Shown here: positions 1-12,831 of the stretch, piece after piece | How positions within the stretch are numbered: the first letter of the stretch is position 1 | How the letters are laid out: each line of letters opens with the position of its first letter | NCBI GenBank assembly: GCA_949747775.1 | Contig: CATKGX010000098.1 | Location: 1 to 17,641 of the forward strand | Origin: an uncultured Clostridia bacterium | GTDB lineage: Bacteria > Bacillota > Clostridia > TANB77 > CAG-508 | Direction: 5' to 3' | DNA length: 17,641 nucleotides | Position numbers and translations under genes: made by a program | The notes under the pieces: generated by a model | The model's database searches: none | What the model saw: only the letters and a program-made list of their open reading frames with translations | What the model was told of the DNA's origin: nothing

Positions 1-179
1 ATAAAAATTGTATTAATATTAAATTATTAAAAGAGATATTTGGTGAATTTAATATCATTGGGATATTAAAATATAATACGATATATAATCGATTAATTAA
101 TAAAAATATAAAAAATCATTTTTATGATAAAAAGATAAGAGAAGAATATTTGCAAATAAAACATGAATTAAATAAATAA
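1..179 (+). CDS. 3' end of an unidentified CDS (partial, runs off the window start)
   Basis: The frame starting at position 3 stays open for 58 codons up to TAA at 177-179, which is unusual in such AT-rich DNA. It ends 18 nt before the ATG of the next gene (operon-like spacing). No domain recognised. Confidence 0.35.
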   Translation, partial: KNCINIKLLKEIFGEFNIIGILKYNTIYNRLINKNIKNHFYDKKIREEYLQIKHELNK

Positions 180-197: not shown

Positions 198-920
198 ATG
201 AATCTAGAAAAAGAAATAAATTCGAACCGCTCTATGCAAAATGAGATTGTAAGTCCAAATAGCCAAAATAATTTCTTAGAAACAACACTAGGAAAGACAA
301 TCAATACTGCAGTTGATATAGGATTAAGATGGATATTACCAGATTTTATAGAAAATGAAGTTATTAATATAAAAGACAGTTTAATAAAGGGAGGATTGAA
401 AGAGGGCATTAATACTGCAATTCAGACAGCAAGCAATTTAGGAAAAAGTTCACTTGGAATCATAACAGGAAAATTTGAAAATATATCTCAAGCACAAGCA
501 GCGATAAAAACAGGAGGGATTATAGATGGAGTATCAGACGTAATTGATAATGTATTAAGCAAAACAGTTAATACAGGATTAATAGATAAAAACACATCAT
601 TATTAATAAAAAAAGGAAAAAATGTCATATTAGATCATGTAAGCAAAAACATAGAAGACACATTTACAAGCCAATTAAACTATATTGAAAAATTAGGAAA
701 ATATGAAAATAATTGGAAGAGATATTATAAAGAAGAAAATTTTGAAGGGATGCAAAGAGAATATGAAAAAATAAAAGAAAAGATAAAACAACTAATTCCA
801 TTAGAAAATACATTAAAAGAAGCAAGAATCATTGAAAATTTTCATATGTTAGTTAAAAATAATGGGCAGAAATTTAATTTAAGCAAAGAACAAATAGAAC
901 TTGCCAATATACTAACTTAA
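198..920 (+). CDS. Conserved hypothetical soluble protein (Gly/Ile/Asn-rich helical N-half, K/E-rich C-half), function unknown
   Basis: 240-aa ORF with ATG preceded by AAAGGAAAAAGAG. No TM segment or signal peptide. No catalytic motif recognised. Confidence 0.75.
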   Translation: MNLEKEINSNRSMQNEIVSPNSQNNFLETTLGKTINTAVDIGLRWILPDFIENEVINIKDSLIKGGLKEGINTAIQTASNLGKSSLGIITGKFENISQAQAAIKTGGIIDGVSDVIDNVLSKTVNTGLIDKNTSLLIKKGKNVILDHVSKNIEDTFTSQLNYIEKLGKYENNWKRYYKEENFEGMQREYEKIKEKIKQLIPLENTLKEARIIENFHMLVKNNGQKFNLSKEQIELANILT

Positions 921-5629: not shown

Positions 5630-5917
5630 TTAATTATTTTTTTGATAGATATAATATTTGGGTGACTTTATAAAATGATATATATATTGAATAATATATA
5701 TCATTTTTTCATGGTTAAATCCAATAACACTAAATAAGAAGAATGGAAAAAAGAAACTAACCCAAAATGCAATTTGTAAAGTTATATTTTTAGAAAAAAT
5801 AAGAGAAATAAGATAGACCAATAATCCCCATAAAATATTTAAAAATACAGTTGTATATTCAATGAAGCCAAGTAATTTATGGGTAAAATTATAATTTTGG
5901 GGAAAAATAAATTTCAT
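5630..5917 (-). CDS. PrgI/TcpE-family (VirB3-like) small two-TM membrane protein
   Basis: 95 aa with AAAGGAG RBS 9 nt before the ATG. Two TM helices are followed by a C-terminal GFNHEKMIYIIQYIYHFIKSPKYYIY tail, which resembles the G..E......F...P....Y ending of PrgI-family proteins. Confidence 0.6.
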   Translation of the reverse strand: MKFIFPQNYNFTHKLLGFIEYTTVFLNILWGLLVYLISLIFSKNITLQIAFWVSFFFPFFLFSVIGFNHEKMIYIIQYIYHFIKSPKYYIYQKNN

Positions 5918-5939
5918 TTTTTAATACTCCTTTTATAAA

Positions 5940-6830
5940 CTATTTCATCATACTTTTCATAAGAGCTAAATTAGTAGACACATCTGTTGAAATACCTCCA
6001 AATAGATGCTGAATATATGAATTAGCCTTTATTAAAGAATAAATAGATCCAATGCATAAAAGTTTAGACAAAACATTAGTAAAATTTAAATTTAATGAAA
6101 AAATAATTAGTAAAACAATGGCAATAAATGCTTGCATAATTAATAAAGCAAAAAAAGTTTTAAGCCATATTTTAAAAAACCAAGAAGTAGAATCATTAAT
6201 TAAAGTTAAAAAAGCAAAAGGCGCTAATAAAACAAATACTTTAATCATAATATAGCGTAAAGCATAAGAAAAGAGCAAATTGAACAACGATAATGATATG
6301 AAACTTTTTAATAATCCATCAAAAGAAAATAAATTAAAACTTTCTTCTTCAACAGAAATAATAGAATTAATATTCTGGATAAAAGATGAAAAAGAAACAT
6401 CTTGATGAAAAATTCCATTTCCTACTTCTTGAATAGCAGAGGAGATAAGAGAGTTAATATCAATTAATTTTTCACAAATAAAGTAAGAGCAATTAATAGA
6501 AACTGCAAAGATTAACAATTTAAAAATAAATTGATAAGGACTTTCTATTTGAACAGATGCAAAATTAGCATATAGTAATTTAAAGCAGTAATATAAAGCG
6601 AAAGCGACTAACAAAGAGTTAGCAATTACTAATAAACCATTGTTAGAATTTGTTCCAAATATTCTTTCAAAAAAATTATCATGTAATACATTAGTATTAA
6701 CAAAAGCTAAATTGTCTAGTGTTTCATAAATATTATTATCTAAGGATGAAAATAAATTATGAAAAATATAATTAATCGTATCTAATATTGTTTTAGCCAT
6801 ATTTTCTGTGGTTGTTACAGTATCTTCCAA
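5940..6830 (-). CDS. VirB6/TrbL-like polytopic membrane protein
   Basis: 296 aa with a TTG start 5 nt after AGGAGG. Soluble helical N-terminus followed by about 5-6 TM helices. Positioned between a VirB2-like and a VirB3-like gene, as in Firmicutes transfer operons. Confidence 0.55.
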   Translation of the reverse strand: MEDTVTTTENMAKTILDTINYIFHNLFSSLDNNIYETLDNLAFVNTNVLHDNFFERIFGTNSNNGLLVIANSLLVAFALYYCFKLLYANFASVQIESPYQFIFKLLIFAVSINCSYFICEKLIDINSLISSAIQEVGNGIFHQDVSFSSFIQNINSIISVEEESFNLFSFDGLLKSFISLSLFNLLFSYALRYIMIKVFVLLAPFAFLTLINDSTSWFFKIWLKTFFALLIMQAFIAIVLLIIFSLNLNFTNVLSKLLCIGSIYSLIKANSYIQHLFGGISTDVSTNLALMKSMMK

Positions 6831-6850
6831 AAATACCTCCTAAAATAAAA

Positions 6851-7207
6851 TTAACTAATTAAAGAACTAATTGCAGACAAAATTAAATCAATTGCGAGAA
6901 TAAAGGCATAGGAAAAAAGCGAGCCTCTAATCAGTTTTTTGGCAGTACGAATTCTTTCCTCATCTCCAAAACTAAACTTTTTCATAAACACTCCGACCCC
7001 AACGGCTACTGCGGCAGCAGGGGTAGATAGTGTCATAAGCCATTTTTCAATAGATTTAAATGCATCATTCAATTTAGAGACTAATTTAGGAGTATTGTCA
7101 AACAGTCCAGCAAAGGATATTTGAGGAAAAGTAAATAGTAAAACGAGTAATAAAATAATGAGATGTCGAAAAAGAAAAATATACTTTTTATTTTTAAACA
7201 AATTCAT
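6851..7207 (-). CDS. TrbC/VirB2-like pilin-type protein (signal peptide plus two hydrophobic helices)
   Basis: 118 aa with AAAGGAGG 5 nt before the ATG. Basic N-terminus and a hydrophobic core ending ISFA|G (predicted signal peptidase site near aa 33). Then helix STPAAAVAVGVGVFM, a charged loop KKFSFGDEERIRTAKKLIRG, and helix SLFSYAFILAIDLILSAISSLIS, which is VirB2-like topology. Confidence 0.55.
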   Translation of the reverse strand: MNLFKNKKYIFLFRHLIILLLVLLFTFPQISFAGLFDNTPKLVSKLNDAFKSIEKWLMTLSTPAAAVAVGVGVFMKKFSFGDEERIRTAKKLIRGSLFSYAFILAIDLILSAISSLIS

Positions 7208-7223
7208 AAAAACCTCCTTTGAA

Positions 7224-8915
7224 TCATTTATTTTTAAAATAAGGAATTAATTTAATTTTTTGAGGAGAAATAATCTTTTCACCATCTGATAAAAAAGCAA
7301 GACAAGAAAAATTTTCTAGTTCTTGTGTGAAAAATTTTGTATCGTAAATATAATCAGTTTGGAGGTGGGTGTTTAAAGTCTCAGAAATGCTAGAATTATT
7401 AGAGTGAAAAGTTTTTAATAAATAATTATAATTTGTTTCTTTTGCATTTTCAGAAATTGATTTTGAAACTTTTTTCTTGTCTTCTTTTCCAATTTGCTTT
7501 TGTGCACTTTCTATTGTATAAATGTCATCTGTACGAAACCAAAATTTATTGACTAGATTTTGAATAATCACTTGTACAGCATATTGTTGATTAAGTGTAT
7601 TCAAAAGAGAAGTATAACTTTGCGTTGCAACAATATTAATACATTTAGCTTCACGGCTTTGTGAAAAAAATTGACTATCAGAAACAGTACAATATTCACT
7701 ATATTCGTCAGAAATAAATACAGCTGGTTTAAATTGCAAATTGGTATTATTAGCTAAACGACACATAACTTCTGTTTGAAAATCTAACTTTAAATAGGCA
7801 GCAATAATCTTAGATAAATTCTTATATTCCGCAATATTAAGATTTAAAACAACGATTTTCCCTGAAGCGAGAGCATCTTCAAAACCAGGAAAATTAAGTT
7901 CTTGAGGTTTGGGGCAAAATGTACGAAATATAGAATAGTCAGATATAAAACAACTAGTAATTCTTGTAATTTCAGATTTCAAAATGGAAAAAGTTCGGGA
8001 ATCCAAAGCAAAGAATTCTTTTTCAAAAAAATTTAAAGCAGATAAAAGGTCGTATGTATCAGAATGGCTAAAAAATCCGTTTATAAAATATTCTCTTAAT
8101 ATAGAAAATTTTTCTTTATAGTAAAGCTCTTGTGTTATAATCTTATGAATCTCTTCAAAAGTCACGTAACCATTATTATATAGCCTACATAGTTTAATAG
8201 CTTCTGTTAAGGCTGTTTCGGCTTTGTCAATCCAATAGGACTCAGAATTGTTGGGCGAAAGAAGCAGTAAAATATCTTTAAGCCTATTTGCAAGTACAGA
8301 AGCCTTTAAGTGGGGCTTATGAAGAGGATTGTAACGGAATGCACCATCTAATTCAATAACAATTAAGTCATTTAATCGGTGATATTTTTCACAAAACTCC
8401 CTTACCTTTAAGTAATAATTTCCCTTCACATCCAAAACGAGCATAGGAAGTCTTTGACAGTTAGCAATAAATTGCTCAGTAAAAGGATACATAGCACTAC
8501 TCGTTTTACCAGTACCAATTGTTCCAGTAATTAAAATGTTTTGAAATAAGCTTTTTTCTGGTAAATAGATAGATGTTGATAAAAGAGAATTACCTACGTA
8601 TAAGCAAAGAGAAGAATTATAGTCGCTAAAATTATGGATACGAACAGTTAAAGAATTATGATGATTTTTTAATTTATTTATAAAATCCATTAAATTATAA
8701 AATTTGTTTGGTAAAAAAATAGTGAAAAATGAAAAAACAAAACGATATAATAAATTGGAAATTAAAATGCTAGAAAAAAGATAGGTAATCAAAAATGATA
8801 ACTTAATGTAATGCCATAATTCAGGATTTTTAAGGCAAATATCAAAAGGATGTATTCCATAGGTAATAATAACAGATGTAGCAGTAAAAATAGGGGAAAA
8901 ATAGGAATAACCCAA
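7224..8915 (-). CDS. Type IV coupling protein-like ATPase (TraG/TraD/VirD4 family)
   Basis: 563 aa from TTG 8915. N-terminal TM helices, Walker A GTIGTGKTS (8499-8525), DVKGNYY, an all-helical insert, and Walker B VFISDEYSEY. Then SREAKCINIVATQSYTSL and FWFRTDDIYTIESAQKQIGK, which follow the T4CP C-terminal pattern (DEf..R..gI...QS..QL....d.eTa..iS..lG). The true start may lie upstream (up to 8963); see findings. Confidence 0.75.
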   Translation of the reverse strand: MGYSYFSPIFTATSVIITYGIHPFDICLKNPELWHYIKLSFLITYLFSSILISNLLYRFVFSFFTIFLPNKFYNLMDFINKLKNHHNSLTVRIHNFSDYNSSLCLYVGNSLLSTSIYLPEKSLFQNILITGTIGTGKTSSAMYPFTEQFIANCQRLPMLVLDVKGNYYLKVREFCEKYHRLNDLIVIELDGAFRYNPLHKPHLKASVLANRLKDILLLLSPNNSESYWIDKAETALTEAIKLCRLYNNGYVTFEEIHKIITQELYYKEKFSILREYFINGFFSHSDTYDLLSALNFFEKEFFALDSRTFSILKSEITRITSCFISDYSIFRTFCPKPQELNFPGFEDALASGKIVVLNLNIAEYKNLSKIIAAYLKLDFQTEVMCRLANNTNLQFKPAVFISDEYSEYCTVSDSQFFSQSREAKCINIVATQSYTSLLNTLNQQYAVQVIIQNLVNKFWFRTDDIYTIESAQKQIGKEDKKKVSKSISENAKETNYNYLLKTFHSNNSSISETLNTHLQTDYIYDTKFFTQELENFSCLAFLSDGEKIISPQKIKLIPYFKNK

Positions 8916-8959
8916 AGAAATAAAAATGCCAAAAAATAAAATAATAAAAATAAAGCGTT

Positions 8960-9118
8960 TTATAAACTCACCTTCTTAGATTGGATATTTAATTTTGAAC
9001 CTTGTTTGTTGTGGAAAACTTTTATATCAAAGAATAAATAAATCGAATAAAAAGTAATAAAAAGATTCATAATAAAAACAATAAAAAATAAATCAATTGG
9101 CTTTATAAAAAACACCAC
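8960..9118 (-). CDS. Possible small single-pass membrane protein, first cistron of the T4SS-like operon
   Basis: GGAGG (9123-9119) is followed immediately by in-frame GTG GTG, then a hydrophobic stretch FFIKPIDLFFIVFIMNLFITFYSIYLFF and a basic tail. Its TAA overlaps the upstream extension of the ATPase frame. Start codon spacing is poor, so this is uncertain. Confidence 0.3.
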   Translation of the reverse strand: MVFFIKPIDLFFIVFIMNLFITFYSIYLFFDIKVFHNKQGSKLNIQSKKVSL

Positions 9119-9133
9119 CCTCCAATGCAGACA

Positions 9134-9189
9134 ATCATACAACAAAATTTACCATTTGTCTATACTTTTTTTTAAAAATGTGATAAAAT
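9134..9189. promoter_or_regulatory. Divergent promoter region (T4SS-like operon leftward, DUF1858 gene rightward)
   Basis: Minus strand: TAGACA (9162-9157), 17 nt, TATGAT (9139-9134), or alternatively the extended -10 TGgTAAATT (9154-9146). Plus strand: extended -10 TGaTAAAAT (9181-9189). None is verified. Confidence 0.35.
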
Positions 9190-9979: not shown

Positions 9980-10023
9980 AAAATGAAAAGGCAAAAGCCT
10001 TTCGGCTCATAGCTGAAAGGCTT
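9980..10023 (-). terminator. Terminator of the 239-aa gene (hairpin overlaps its stop codon)
   Basis: 9-bp stem AAGCCTTTC (9995-10003) / GAAAGGCTT (10015-10023). On the minus strand it is followed by the T-rich TTGCCTTTTCATTTT. The stop codon TGA sits in the loop. A second 11-bp hairpin, GGGATAAAACA/TGTTTTATCCC, lies at 9949-9979. Confidence 0.6.
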
Positions 10024-10726
10024 GTTTGTGCATTTTTATTGCTTGAGAGAGTTTATCATTCAAAAATTCTAAAGTAGGTTTGTCAATCGAATTTCTAAAA
10101 TATAACTTATAGTACTTAATTTGCATTTTCAAAAAATCAATTTCCTTTTCAATGCAGACTAATAAAGCAGTTTTGTTTGCTTTGCGAATTTCCAAAAGGT
10201 GATTTAAACGATCTCCAAGAAGCCGACGCATTTGGCTGATAATATTGGCATCTAAAATAAGCATAATAACACCTTTTTTGAGTAGCCATCTAATTGCAAA
10301 ACTTCCTGTATCATATGCAATGGCAATATTATCTACAGAAACACCTTCTACATATTTATTAGCAATATCTTGGATTTCTTCTGCAGAAAAATCATCCAGA
10401 TATTCCTGACGCATTTTGAGAAGGTCCTTAAAGTGTGCAATAGACGCAGTAGAACTATTTTGCACGTTATTGCTACTATAGTTAGCAGCAGCTTTGGATT
10501 GTAATCTTTGACAAGTCTTAGTATCAACAAGGCAACAGATTACTGCAAAATCCCGTACTTTGTAAAAAGTACTCTCAGAAATACCATATTTCTGTTTAAA
10601 AAAGCTACGAGCAAAATTTAGGTCAGAGTCGGCGTATTCAGTGACTATTTTGGCAATATTTTCATTAGATAGACTATGCCGATGTTTAAAATCTATGAAC
10701 TTTTGATAAAGACTCTTTTTTGCCAC
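10007..10726 (-). CDS. Hypothetical protein, possibly DNA-binding (HTH-like segments), function unknown
   Basis: 239-aa ORF that is GC-elevated relative to its neighbours (hand counts of 23-24 G+C per 60 nt at 10381-10500). Helix-turn-helix-like stretches (ISESTFYKVRDFAV; VSVDNIAIAYDTGSFAIRWLLKKG). No family recognised. Confidence 0.6.
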   Translation of the reverse strand: MAKKSLYQKFIDFKHRHSLSNENIAKIVTEYADSDLNFARSFFKQKYGISESTFYKVRDFAVICCLVDTKTCQRLQSKAAANYSSNNVQNSSTASIAHFKDLLKMRQEYLDDFSAEEIQDIANKYVEGVSVDNIAIAYDTGSFAIRWLLKKGVIMLILDANIISQMRRLLGDRLNHLLEIRKANKTALLVCIEKEIDFLKMQIKYYKLYFRNSIDKPTLEFLNDKLSQAIKMHKQAFQL

Positions 10727-12243: not shown

Positions 12244-12831
12244 TTAAAATATAATACCAGTATTTGTTCCAATAACTTTACCAATAATATTAAAAGAATC
12301 ATCTTCATAAATCGAGATTTCTTCTACTTCTTTATTATCAGCTCTTAATACTAATTTATCCCTTCGAACAATAAAACGTCTAATAACAACTTTACCATCG
12401 TATTCAAAAACACCAATTTCTCTATTATTAAGTGGTGAATTTAACTCTACAAAAGCATATACGTCTTTAGGAAGTTTTGGTTCCATACTATTGTCAGGAA
12501 CTTTAATAGCAAGTGCAGCACTAGGCAAGCTTGCTGGACACTCCATAAAAGAGTGAATAGAATCTACTGCTAAAACTTTGTTATAAGCAATACGATTAGG
12601 AGCTTTATAAAATTCCTGATCATCTGATAAATATTTGTCATATGTATACATTAAAGGTTGATAAGGAACTTCTAATGCTTTGCAAATAGTACGTAAAGCT
12701 TTATGGCTAGGATTTCTCTCACCTTTTTCAATATGGGTAAGATGTCCTATATTGATACCCGTTTCCTTAGCAAGGTCTGTTTTTGAAACTTTTTTTTCTT
12801 TACGAATTCTTGCTATTATATCACCTATCAT
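12244..12831 (-). CDS. XRE-family HTH repressor with C-terminal S24 (LexA/CI-like) peptidase domain
   Basis: 195 aa. N-terminal HTH_3-type VSKTDLAKETGINIGHLTHIEKGERNPS. C-terminal S24 fold with DNSMEP (Ser115) and ...GKVVIRRF... AAGAGG RBS upstream. Confidence 0.85.
   Translation of the reverse strand: MIGDIIARIRKEKKVSKTDLAKETGINIGHLTHIEKGERNPSHKALRTICKALEVPYQPLMYTYDKYLSDDQEFYKAPNRIAYNKVLAVDSIHSFMECPASLPSAALAIKVPDNSMEPKLPKDVYAFVELNSPLNNREIGVFEYDGKVVIRRFIVRRDKLVLRADNKEVEEISIYEDDSFNIIGKVIGTNTGIIF

Follow-up and report, generated by a model that had tools for sequence, protein, structure and literature searches.

A probable type IV secretion system fixed in the chromosome of uncultured gut Clostridia, in two convergent operons at the replication origin

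VirB4 is the signature subunit of all type IV secretion systems (T4SSs) (PMC4027160, PMC12857230), and according to a 2025 review nearly all functions known for these systems in Gram-positive bacteria amount to DNA transfer (PMC12857230). In the MPF-FATA class, represented by CTn2 of C. difficile and by the prg/pcf genes of pCF10, the core consists of VirB4 and VirD4, then PrgF/CD414, PrgH/CD415 (VirB6) and PrgI/CD417 (VirB3), in that order (PMC4027160). Chromosomal systems have been described in the Patescibacteria, which the same review calls unique among monoderms in their reliance on a chromosomal T4SS (PMC12857230): they comprise VirB4, TrsD, PrgI/VirB3, VirB6 and pilins of the PF18895 family, lack a relaxase, and often lie beside dnaA, dnaN, rnpA and rpmH (PMC12102498). 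They have been proposed to import DNA or other macromolecules, and one species needs its T4SS for epibiotic growth (PMC12102498). We report here on a locus of an uncultured Clostridia bacterium, contained in a 17,641 nucleotide stretch (the window; contig CATKGX010000098.1). An analysis of its letters, hereafter the original prediction, had recognised four packed genes, for a coupling-protein ATPase (ORF1), a VirB2-like pilin (ORF2), a VirB6-like protein (ORF3) and a PrgI/VirB3-like protein (ORF4), and had described them as an orphan T4SS-like operon. A limited literature search found no paper on this system in these Clostridia.

Our conclusion, to which we give a probability of about 0.8, is that the locus makes up one of the two arms of a complete T4SS of the monoderm, MPF-FATA-like kind, which is fixed in the chromosome and encoded at the replication origin by two operons that converge. 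When species-representative genomes were scanned, 209 relatives of the ATPase were returned, and 80 of these loci (numbered with the prefix L) were retrieved. The left flank of the window was read from contigs identical to it, retrieved as encoding exactly its ORF3. The statement that no VirB4 gene lies nearby was correct inside the window, but a VirB4 gene ends about 1.1 kb to the left of position 1, some 6.8 kb from ORF4. Its absence is an edge artefact, since the gene sits at about −2993 to −1125 in window coordinates (Table 1), and a practical lesson is that a window edge can produce a false “orphan”. In every relative whose sequence reaches far enough, VirB4, made of a TrsD-like N-domain and an ATPase, is found across gyrA, and the module is not orphaned.

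Leftward from orf240, which is the last gene of this second arm, the genes on the gyrA strand encode a ParA/MinD/CpaE-like ATPase, the VirB4-like ATPase and the TrsD-like protein. The 622 amino acid product provides the VirB4 of the system: it matches the NCBIfam models conju_CD1110 (3.5e-88, 296.7 bits, slightly below the equivalog cut-off of 325) and VirB4_plasma (1.9e-71), as well as the Pfam families P-loop_TraG (5e-20), AAA_10 (1.2e-13) and DUF87 (1.5e-5), each above its cut-off. The TrsD-like protein has matches to the TrsD family and to the N-terminal portion of VirB4. This division into a 190 amino acid N-domain and an ATPase of 612 to 622 amino acids recurs in relatives (L084:11108-13561; L091:9057-11839; L093:8886-11857). 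In outgroup VirB4 proteins, at most 45% identical, the N-domain is fused and the length is 800 to 980 amino acids, one cluster from Clostridia being a PrgI-VirB4 fusion; the split is therefore a feature of the present lineage. In L093, a gap of about 500 nucleotides separates the two genes.

The genes for orf240, the ParA-like ATPase and VirB4 occurred in one and the same order in each of the 37 related loci of sufficient length, with 68 to 92% identity. VirB4 is 81 to 87% identical among the closest relatives, and is more conserved than the coupling protein. By tblastn, orf240 was found in 41 of the 80 related genomes, and in 51 loci once contigs added later were included; in every locus reaching it, it lies between the ParA-like gene and gyrA. 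No match to orf240 was found in Pfam or NCBIfam, and the gene appears split (93 + 157 amino acids) in L091 and L092. The ParA/MinD/CpaE-like ATPase has 421 amino acids in relatives and is split into 207 and 211 in the lineage of the window (L084:9804-11094). The break falls exactly at the Walker A motif (GPSGVR and a stop, versus GPSGVGKS) in three independent assemblies. This gene also looks shortened in L024, L034 and L042.

All relatives are uncultured gut Clostridia, among them Clostridium sp. CAG:273, CAG:567 and a closed chromosome of 1.57 Mb (OZ007016.1). Within this group of small-genome bacteria, conservation extends to more than 200 species-level genomes. The four-gene order of the coupling-protein arm was kept, at the same chromosomal site, in 80 species-level genomes out of 80, with a DUF1858 gene upstream in 71 of them; in about 60, dnaD, dnaI and gyrA are found downstream. 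On long contigs of other species, the origin side reads jag-yidC-yidD-rnpA-rpmH, then dnaA-dnaN-recF-(RemA-like)-gyrB. After gyrB come the TrsD-like gene, VirB4, the ParA-like gene, orf240 and gyrA, and converging on them are dnaI, dnaD, ORF4, ORF3, ORF2 and the coupling protein gene. The distance from dnaA to VirB4 is about 8 kb. This layout places the T4SS in the origin region, between gyrB and gyrA. A DUF4160/DUF2442 pair was seen between gyrB and the TrsD-like gene in the closest relative with a long contig (L091:8529-9042, L092:1022-1535).

Pairwise ratios of non-synonymous to synonymous substitutions (dN/dS) were 0.05 to 0.48 for the T4SS genes, the same range as for dnaI, these values being rough as synonymous sites are near saturation. 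They were 0.11 to 0.23 for the ATPase and 0.05 to 0.16 for ORF2. Protein identities followed those of gyrA and dnaD (Spearman rho 0.59 to 0.87). Purifying selection acts on the T4SS genes, and their divergence keeps pace with that of gyrA; synteny and dN/dS, which had been proposed as a test, both speak for conservation and not decay.

We then come to the proteins of the coupling-protein arm. ORF1 was called a coupling protein from its motifs, and the profile searches agree: it matches Pfam TrwB_AAD_bind (PF10412, 2.3e-10, 40.4 bits for a cut-off of 20.5) and TraG-D_C (PF12696, 2.3e-5, 24.7 bits for a cut-off of 22), both above the gathering score, and the NCBIfam TraD models. The two Pfam families are also found, as precomputed annotations, on the ATPase of the 120 closest relatives. 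The Walker A motif is GTIGTGKT, and the Walker B residues D403-E404 are invariant. In an AlphaFold2 model (pLDDT 72, near 90 in the core) a helical insertion is predicted at about residues 205 to 333, so that the transmembrane anchor, the Walker A/B domain, the all-alpha insertion and the TrwB/TraG-D_C signatures of a coupling protein are all found. Foldseek with this model gave DptH (DptH/DndH C-domain) as the best match at 4.7e-7, followed by DotL (8.5e-7), VirB4 (6.2e-5) and TrwB (about 1e-4), with HerA-Sir2 complexes also listed. The sequence profile found nothing below E=0.01 in the PDB, and tblastn against plasmids returned only relatives of 29% identity or less, in uninformative contexts. 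Taking together the fold matches, the two N-terminal transmembrane helices and the Pfam signatures, we conclude that the ATPase is a divergent VirD4-type coupling protein.

Its length had been given as 563 amino acids from a TTG at 8915, but the start is most likely the ATA at 8963-8961, which yields 579 amino acids and overlaps the stop codon of an upstream gene, O0 (ATAA). Among relatives the start is ATT in 23 loci and ATA in 9 (at least 32 loci), 6 to 9 nucleotides past a GGAGGTG-type site, and the conserved N-terminus “IKRF...” beginning there supplies the first transmembrane helix. An in-frame ATG, GTG or TTG is often absent, and a stop codon immediately precedes the ATT or ATA in L024, L029 and L042. 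Because of these start codons, automated gene calls shorten the coupling protein to 488 amino acids and lose both helices, a second practical lesson of this locus. The short ATPase ORFs of 23 loci were considered as a sign of decay, and this was rejected, as they are caused by the lack of a canonical start codon and not by frameshifts.

The four minus-strand ORFs described initially are all intact and separated by 16, 20 and 22 nucleotides as claimed, and AGGAGG-type ribosome-binding sites are present ahead of ORF2, ORF3 and ORF4, which start with ATG, TTG and ATG respectively. A hydropathy scan reproduced the proposed topologies for all four proteins: the ATPase has two transmembrane helices near its N-terminus, ORF2 a signal peptide together with two hydrophobic helices, ORF3 about five transmembrane helices and ORF4 two. 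A search 3′ of ORF4 showed no intrinsic terminator. The assignments of these proteins to T4SS families hold at the level of remote homology for the ATPase, for ORF2 and, with a weak and consistent signal, for ORF3; for ORF4 the PrgI signal is weak. ORF2 occupies the position of PrgF/CD414 and its mature part is nearly invariant. All 59 orthologues match PF18895 T4SS_pilin (best 3e-6) and 23 match PF04956 TrbC/VirB2, the copy of the window alone scoring 21.3 bits, under the cut-off of 26.6; the gene thus provides a VirB2/PrgF-like pilin.

ORF3 has the position of PrgH/CD415. PF04610 TrbL/VirB6 is matched by 15 of 59 orthologues (best 2.9e-5), with no match in Pfam for the window copy alone, and the ORF3 profile has a single match in the PDB, at E=0.2, to TrwI, which is the VirB6 of R388. 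This weak but consistent signal, in the expected gene order, points to a VirB6/PrgH-like protein. An AlphaFold2 model from a 44-sequence alignment was unusable (pLDDT 53), Foldseek with it giving noise of the G-protein-coupled receptor type (best E=1.3), and the plasmid tblastn search with ORF3 found no match. For ORF4, PrgI was the top family in 10 of 54 orthologues (best E=0.0046), all under the gathering score, with four matches to TcpE and one to VirB3. The alignment has nine invariant columns, and the two-helix topology and the place after the VirB6-like gene fit PrgI. Sequence profiles of ORF2 and ORF4 had no meaningful match in the PDB.

The arm was described as having four genes, and we found five, with a conserved small ORF, O0, upstream of the ATPase. 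The strict O0 motif was found at this place in 56 of 81 sequences, and the alignment has 11 invariant columns, the tail FHNxQGSKL being invariant. Its start is uncertain (ATA 9106, GTG 9118 or 9115, or the TTG at 9145 of the ORF listing); L032 has an in-frame stop directly ahead of the ATA, and among relatives the start is often non-canonical, as in the ATPase. No family match to O0 was found in Pfam or PADLOC. The promoter of the arm, TAGACA, exactly 17 nucleotides and TATNAT, is kept in the 56 loci tested out of 56. The sequence “AAAAAAGTA” upstream of the promoter (window 9134-9175, minus strand) is also invariant in 56 of 56 species, whose proteins are 55 to 75% identical, and a regulator may also bind in the region 9134-9175. 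Inspection of the T4SS promoter by eye showed no Cheo-type LexA box. The weak starts of O0 and of the ATPase, as against the strong ribosome-binding sites of ORF2 to ORF4, suggest a low dosage of motor relative to pilin.

Table 1. Positions of the genes and signals of the two arms, in window coordinates (negative values lie to the left of position 1)
Feature	Position	Strand	Remarks
VirD4-type coupling ATPase (T4CP)	7224..8963	minus	579 amino acids from ATA 8963-8961
ATPase ORF (ORF1)	7224-8915	minus	intact; 563 amino acids if read from TTG 8915
Pilin ORF (ORF2)	6851-7207	minus	118 amino acids, intact
VirB6-like ORF (ORF3)	5940-6830	minus	296 amino acids, intact
PrgI/VirB3-like ORF (ORF4)	5630-5917	minus	95 amino acids, intact
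O0, fifth conserved gene	8960..9106	minus	about 48 amino acids, one transmembrane helix, tail FHNxQGSKLxLK
Promoter of coupling-protein arm	9134..9162	minus	TAGACA, 17 nucleotides, TATGAT; preceded by an A-tract; consensus scan 10/12
TrsD-like VirB4 N-domain gene	about −3578 to −3006	gyrA strand	190 amino acids
VirB4-like ATPase	about −2993 to −1125	gyrA strand	622 amino acids
ParA/MinD/CpaE-like ATPase, 3′ end	1..179 (bases 3-179)	plus	last 58 codons; matches the 211 amino acid ORF of L084
orf240, last gene of VirB4 arm	198..920	plus	soluble helical protein, between ParA-like gene and gyrA

Compared with the MPF-FATA systems (PMC4027160), the locus has the same core set, with ORF4 as the putative PrgI, and the same ORF2-ORF3-ORF4 order, and its VirB4 best matches the CD1110 family. 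It differs in that it is not on a mobile element, lacks a nearby relaxase, integrase, VirB1-type hydrolase and VirB8-like protein, and encodes VirB4 in two genes, with housekeeping genes between VirB4 and the PrgI-like gene; its coupling protein is at most 29% identical to those of plasmids. The closest known case is the T4SS of the Patescibacteria, or Candidate Phyla Radiation. Both have the same repertoire, with ORF4 as the putative PrgI/VirB3 here, and lack a relaxase, here in the neighbourhood of the arms, and both are chromosomal, vertically inherited, close to the origin and hosted by reduced genomes (PMC12102498); here, vertical inheritance is seen in the order kept in all 80 genomes and in the tracking of gyrA. 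The differences are the host, which belongs to the Bacillota, the arrangement in two convergent arms around gyrA and dnaI-dnaD, the additional ParA/CpaE-like ATPase and orf240, as well as the gene for the coupling protein, integral and co-conserved here whereas in Patescibacteria it is mostly far from virB4 (PMC12102498). The original prediction knew of no precedent for domestication, which is outdated in view of the Patescibacteria (PMC12102498) and of the archaeal Ced system (PMC9905601). Likeness to Ced/Ted is functional only, these being domesticated chromosomal conjugation machineries that serve the host by importing DNA, with a VirB2-like pilin, a VirB6-like membrane protein and one ATPase of the superfamily. 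Ced is archaeal and induced by ultraviolet light, and has a VirB4-like ATPase only, without coupling protein (PMC9905601). ComB of Helicobacter pylori, too, is a relaxase-less T4SS that has been turned to DNA uptake, but it has no VirD4 and belongs to a diderm with an outer-membrane core, while VirD4 is kept here and only inner-membrane and pilin parts are found (PMC12857230).

A mechanism can be proposed from these homologies. VirB4, anchored by the VirB3-like protein, would form with the VirB6-like channel a translocon in the cytoplasmic membrane, the pilin would build a short pilus or stalk across the wall, and the membrane-anchored coupling ATPase, in low amounts, would feed the substrate into the channel. 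Because it is inherited with the chromosome and no DNA-processing genes lie nearby, its role is most likely a function for the host, not self-transfer of the system. This function could be the contact-dependent import or export of DNA or of another macromolecule. More tentatively, and with the odds rather against it, such an origin-proximal T4SS with a coupling protein and no relaxase could be an indispensable apparatus for taking up the DNA or macromolecules of neighbours, in gut Firmicutes that depend on partners.

Several points weigh against a complete, domesticated system. Its function is wholly inferred, and the cooperation of the two arms is assumed from their joint conservation. The assignments of ORF3 and ORF4 come from weak profile matches and gene order, the ORF3 model having failed, and in the fold search, which is based on a predicted structure, VirB4 and DptH-type ATPases are not cleanly set apart from the coupling ATPase. 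A break interrupts the ParA-like gene in the lineage of the window, so not every part is kept everywhere. Finally, about 10 kb were seen on each side, and a relaxase, a hydrolase, a VirB8-like gene or a second T4SS may be present elsewhere.

This last point bears on the alternative that survives best, although we consider it unlikely: a working conjugation system for chromosomal or other DNA, whose relaxase and accessory proteins would have their genes in another part of the genome. The substrates normally recruited by coupling proteins are of the relaxase-DNA kind, and the VirD4-type coupling protein kept here shows strong conservation, the examined region being limited to about 10 kb on each side. 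A VirB1-type peptidoglycan hydrolase and a VirB8-like protein are part of most Gram-positive systems. No relaxase, integrase or hydrolase was found anywhere in the window, as first stated, and none of these nor a VirB8-like gene was found within about 10 kb of either arm (L084, L091-L094). The roughly 20 kb around either arm are devoid of a relaxase in several species, and the fixed location amid core genes speaks against an element that transmits itself. The relaxase, the integrase or excisionase and the variable site that mark an integrative conjugative element (ICE) or a conjugative plasmid are all missing from the window and its flanks, and the site is fixed in 80 genomes. The Patescibacteria are likewise relaxase-less (PMC12102498).

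Much less probable is a minimal membrane module working on the coupling-type ATPase alone, with no VirB4 involved, as the original prediction had proposed for a domesticated locus. Domestication stands, on the gene order kept in 80 out of 80 genomes, purifying selection and co-divergence with gyrA; sole reliance on the coupling-type ATPase does not, as VirB4 is present. The window itself contains no VirB4, and in six divergent relatives (L049, L051, L055, L069, L073 and L080) ORF4 is the last gene of the arm and envelope genes come next, the VirB4 arm being neither adjacent to ORF4 nor seen within their flanks. Nevertheless, VirB4 and the TrsD-like gene lie 1.1 to 3.6 kb left of the window on identical contigs, which already contradicts such a module for this lineage. 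The VirB4 arm accompanies all 37 related loci reaching far enough, with a VirB4 better conserved than the coupling protein, and VirB4 usually has the VirB3-like protein as its anchor in the membrane (PMC12102498).

A sharply truncated remnant of an ICE, the other initial proposal, or a decaying one has a very small probability. It would account for the lack of relaxase, integrase, hydrolase and VirB8-like genes nearby and for the broken ParA-like gene. A recent or decaying remnant is however excluded by the fixed gene order, the dN/dS values and the tracking of gyrA and dnaD identity: the five genes are intact, order and chromosomal site are fixed in 80 species-level genomes, dN/dS is well under 1, divergence follows gyrA and the promoter is invariant. 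As stated initially, the DNA is at least as AT-rich as the host genes (GC 22 to 32% in the four-gene region versus 28 to 36% in gyrA, and about 28% over the whole window), and its base composition does not set it apart from them. Least probable of all is an anti-phage defence module made of a HerA/DptH-like ATPase and membrane partners, which the DptH/DndH C-domain and HerA-Sir2 matches of the ATPase model would favour, since PADLOC gave weak generic P-loop matches (E=0.005 to 0.009) and none for the four partner proteins, the partners are relatives of T4SS pilin, VirB6 and PrgI, and VirB4 lies alongside.

The housekeeping genes said to bracket the arm are real, with gyrA, dnaI (NCBIfam PRK06835, 1.5e-101) and dnaD (a DnaD/DnaB_2 protein) on one side, the DUF1858 gene and a tRNA Lys-Glu-Thr cluster on the other. 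An Rfam scan of the window found four tRNAs and nothing else, and a PHROGs search of its proteins gave no credible match. In some relatives the interval between ORF4 and dnaD holds inserts, in which no T4SS genes were found: four of them carry 1.7 to 2.3 kb of AT-rich DNA without credible ORFs (L061:12036-14311, L064:13372-15577, L068:13324-15567 and L025:13475-15180), and two (L063, L071) have envelope glycosyltransferase-like genes. Adjoining the tRNA cluster, a 239 amino acid ORF (window 10007-10726, minus strand) matches no Pfam family, was found by tblastn in none of the 80 related loci, and seems to be a lineage-specific insertion. A repressor of the XRE-HTH and peptidase S24 type (LexA/CI-like; 12244-12831, minus strand) keeps its relative position close to the locus in about 30 relatives.

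The host clade occurs in gut metagenomes of humans, mice, rabbits and chickens, and the closest proteins occur on hundreds of contigs. These gut Clostridia appear to have the same kind of system as the Patescibacteria, in the same kind of chromosomal position, and they provide a second lineage for studying the role of a monoderm T4SS that is relaxase-less and vertically inherited. The finding suggests that these little-known organisms may depend on cell-to-cell exchange. If the system were indeed an indispensable uptake apparatus, it would mean partner-dependent life in true Firmicutes of the human gut, and would be a second example of such domestication, possibly an ancestral or donor-related one.

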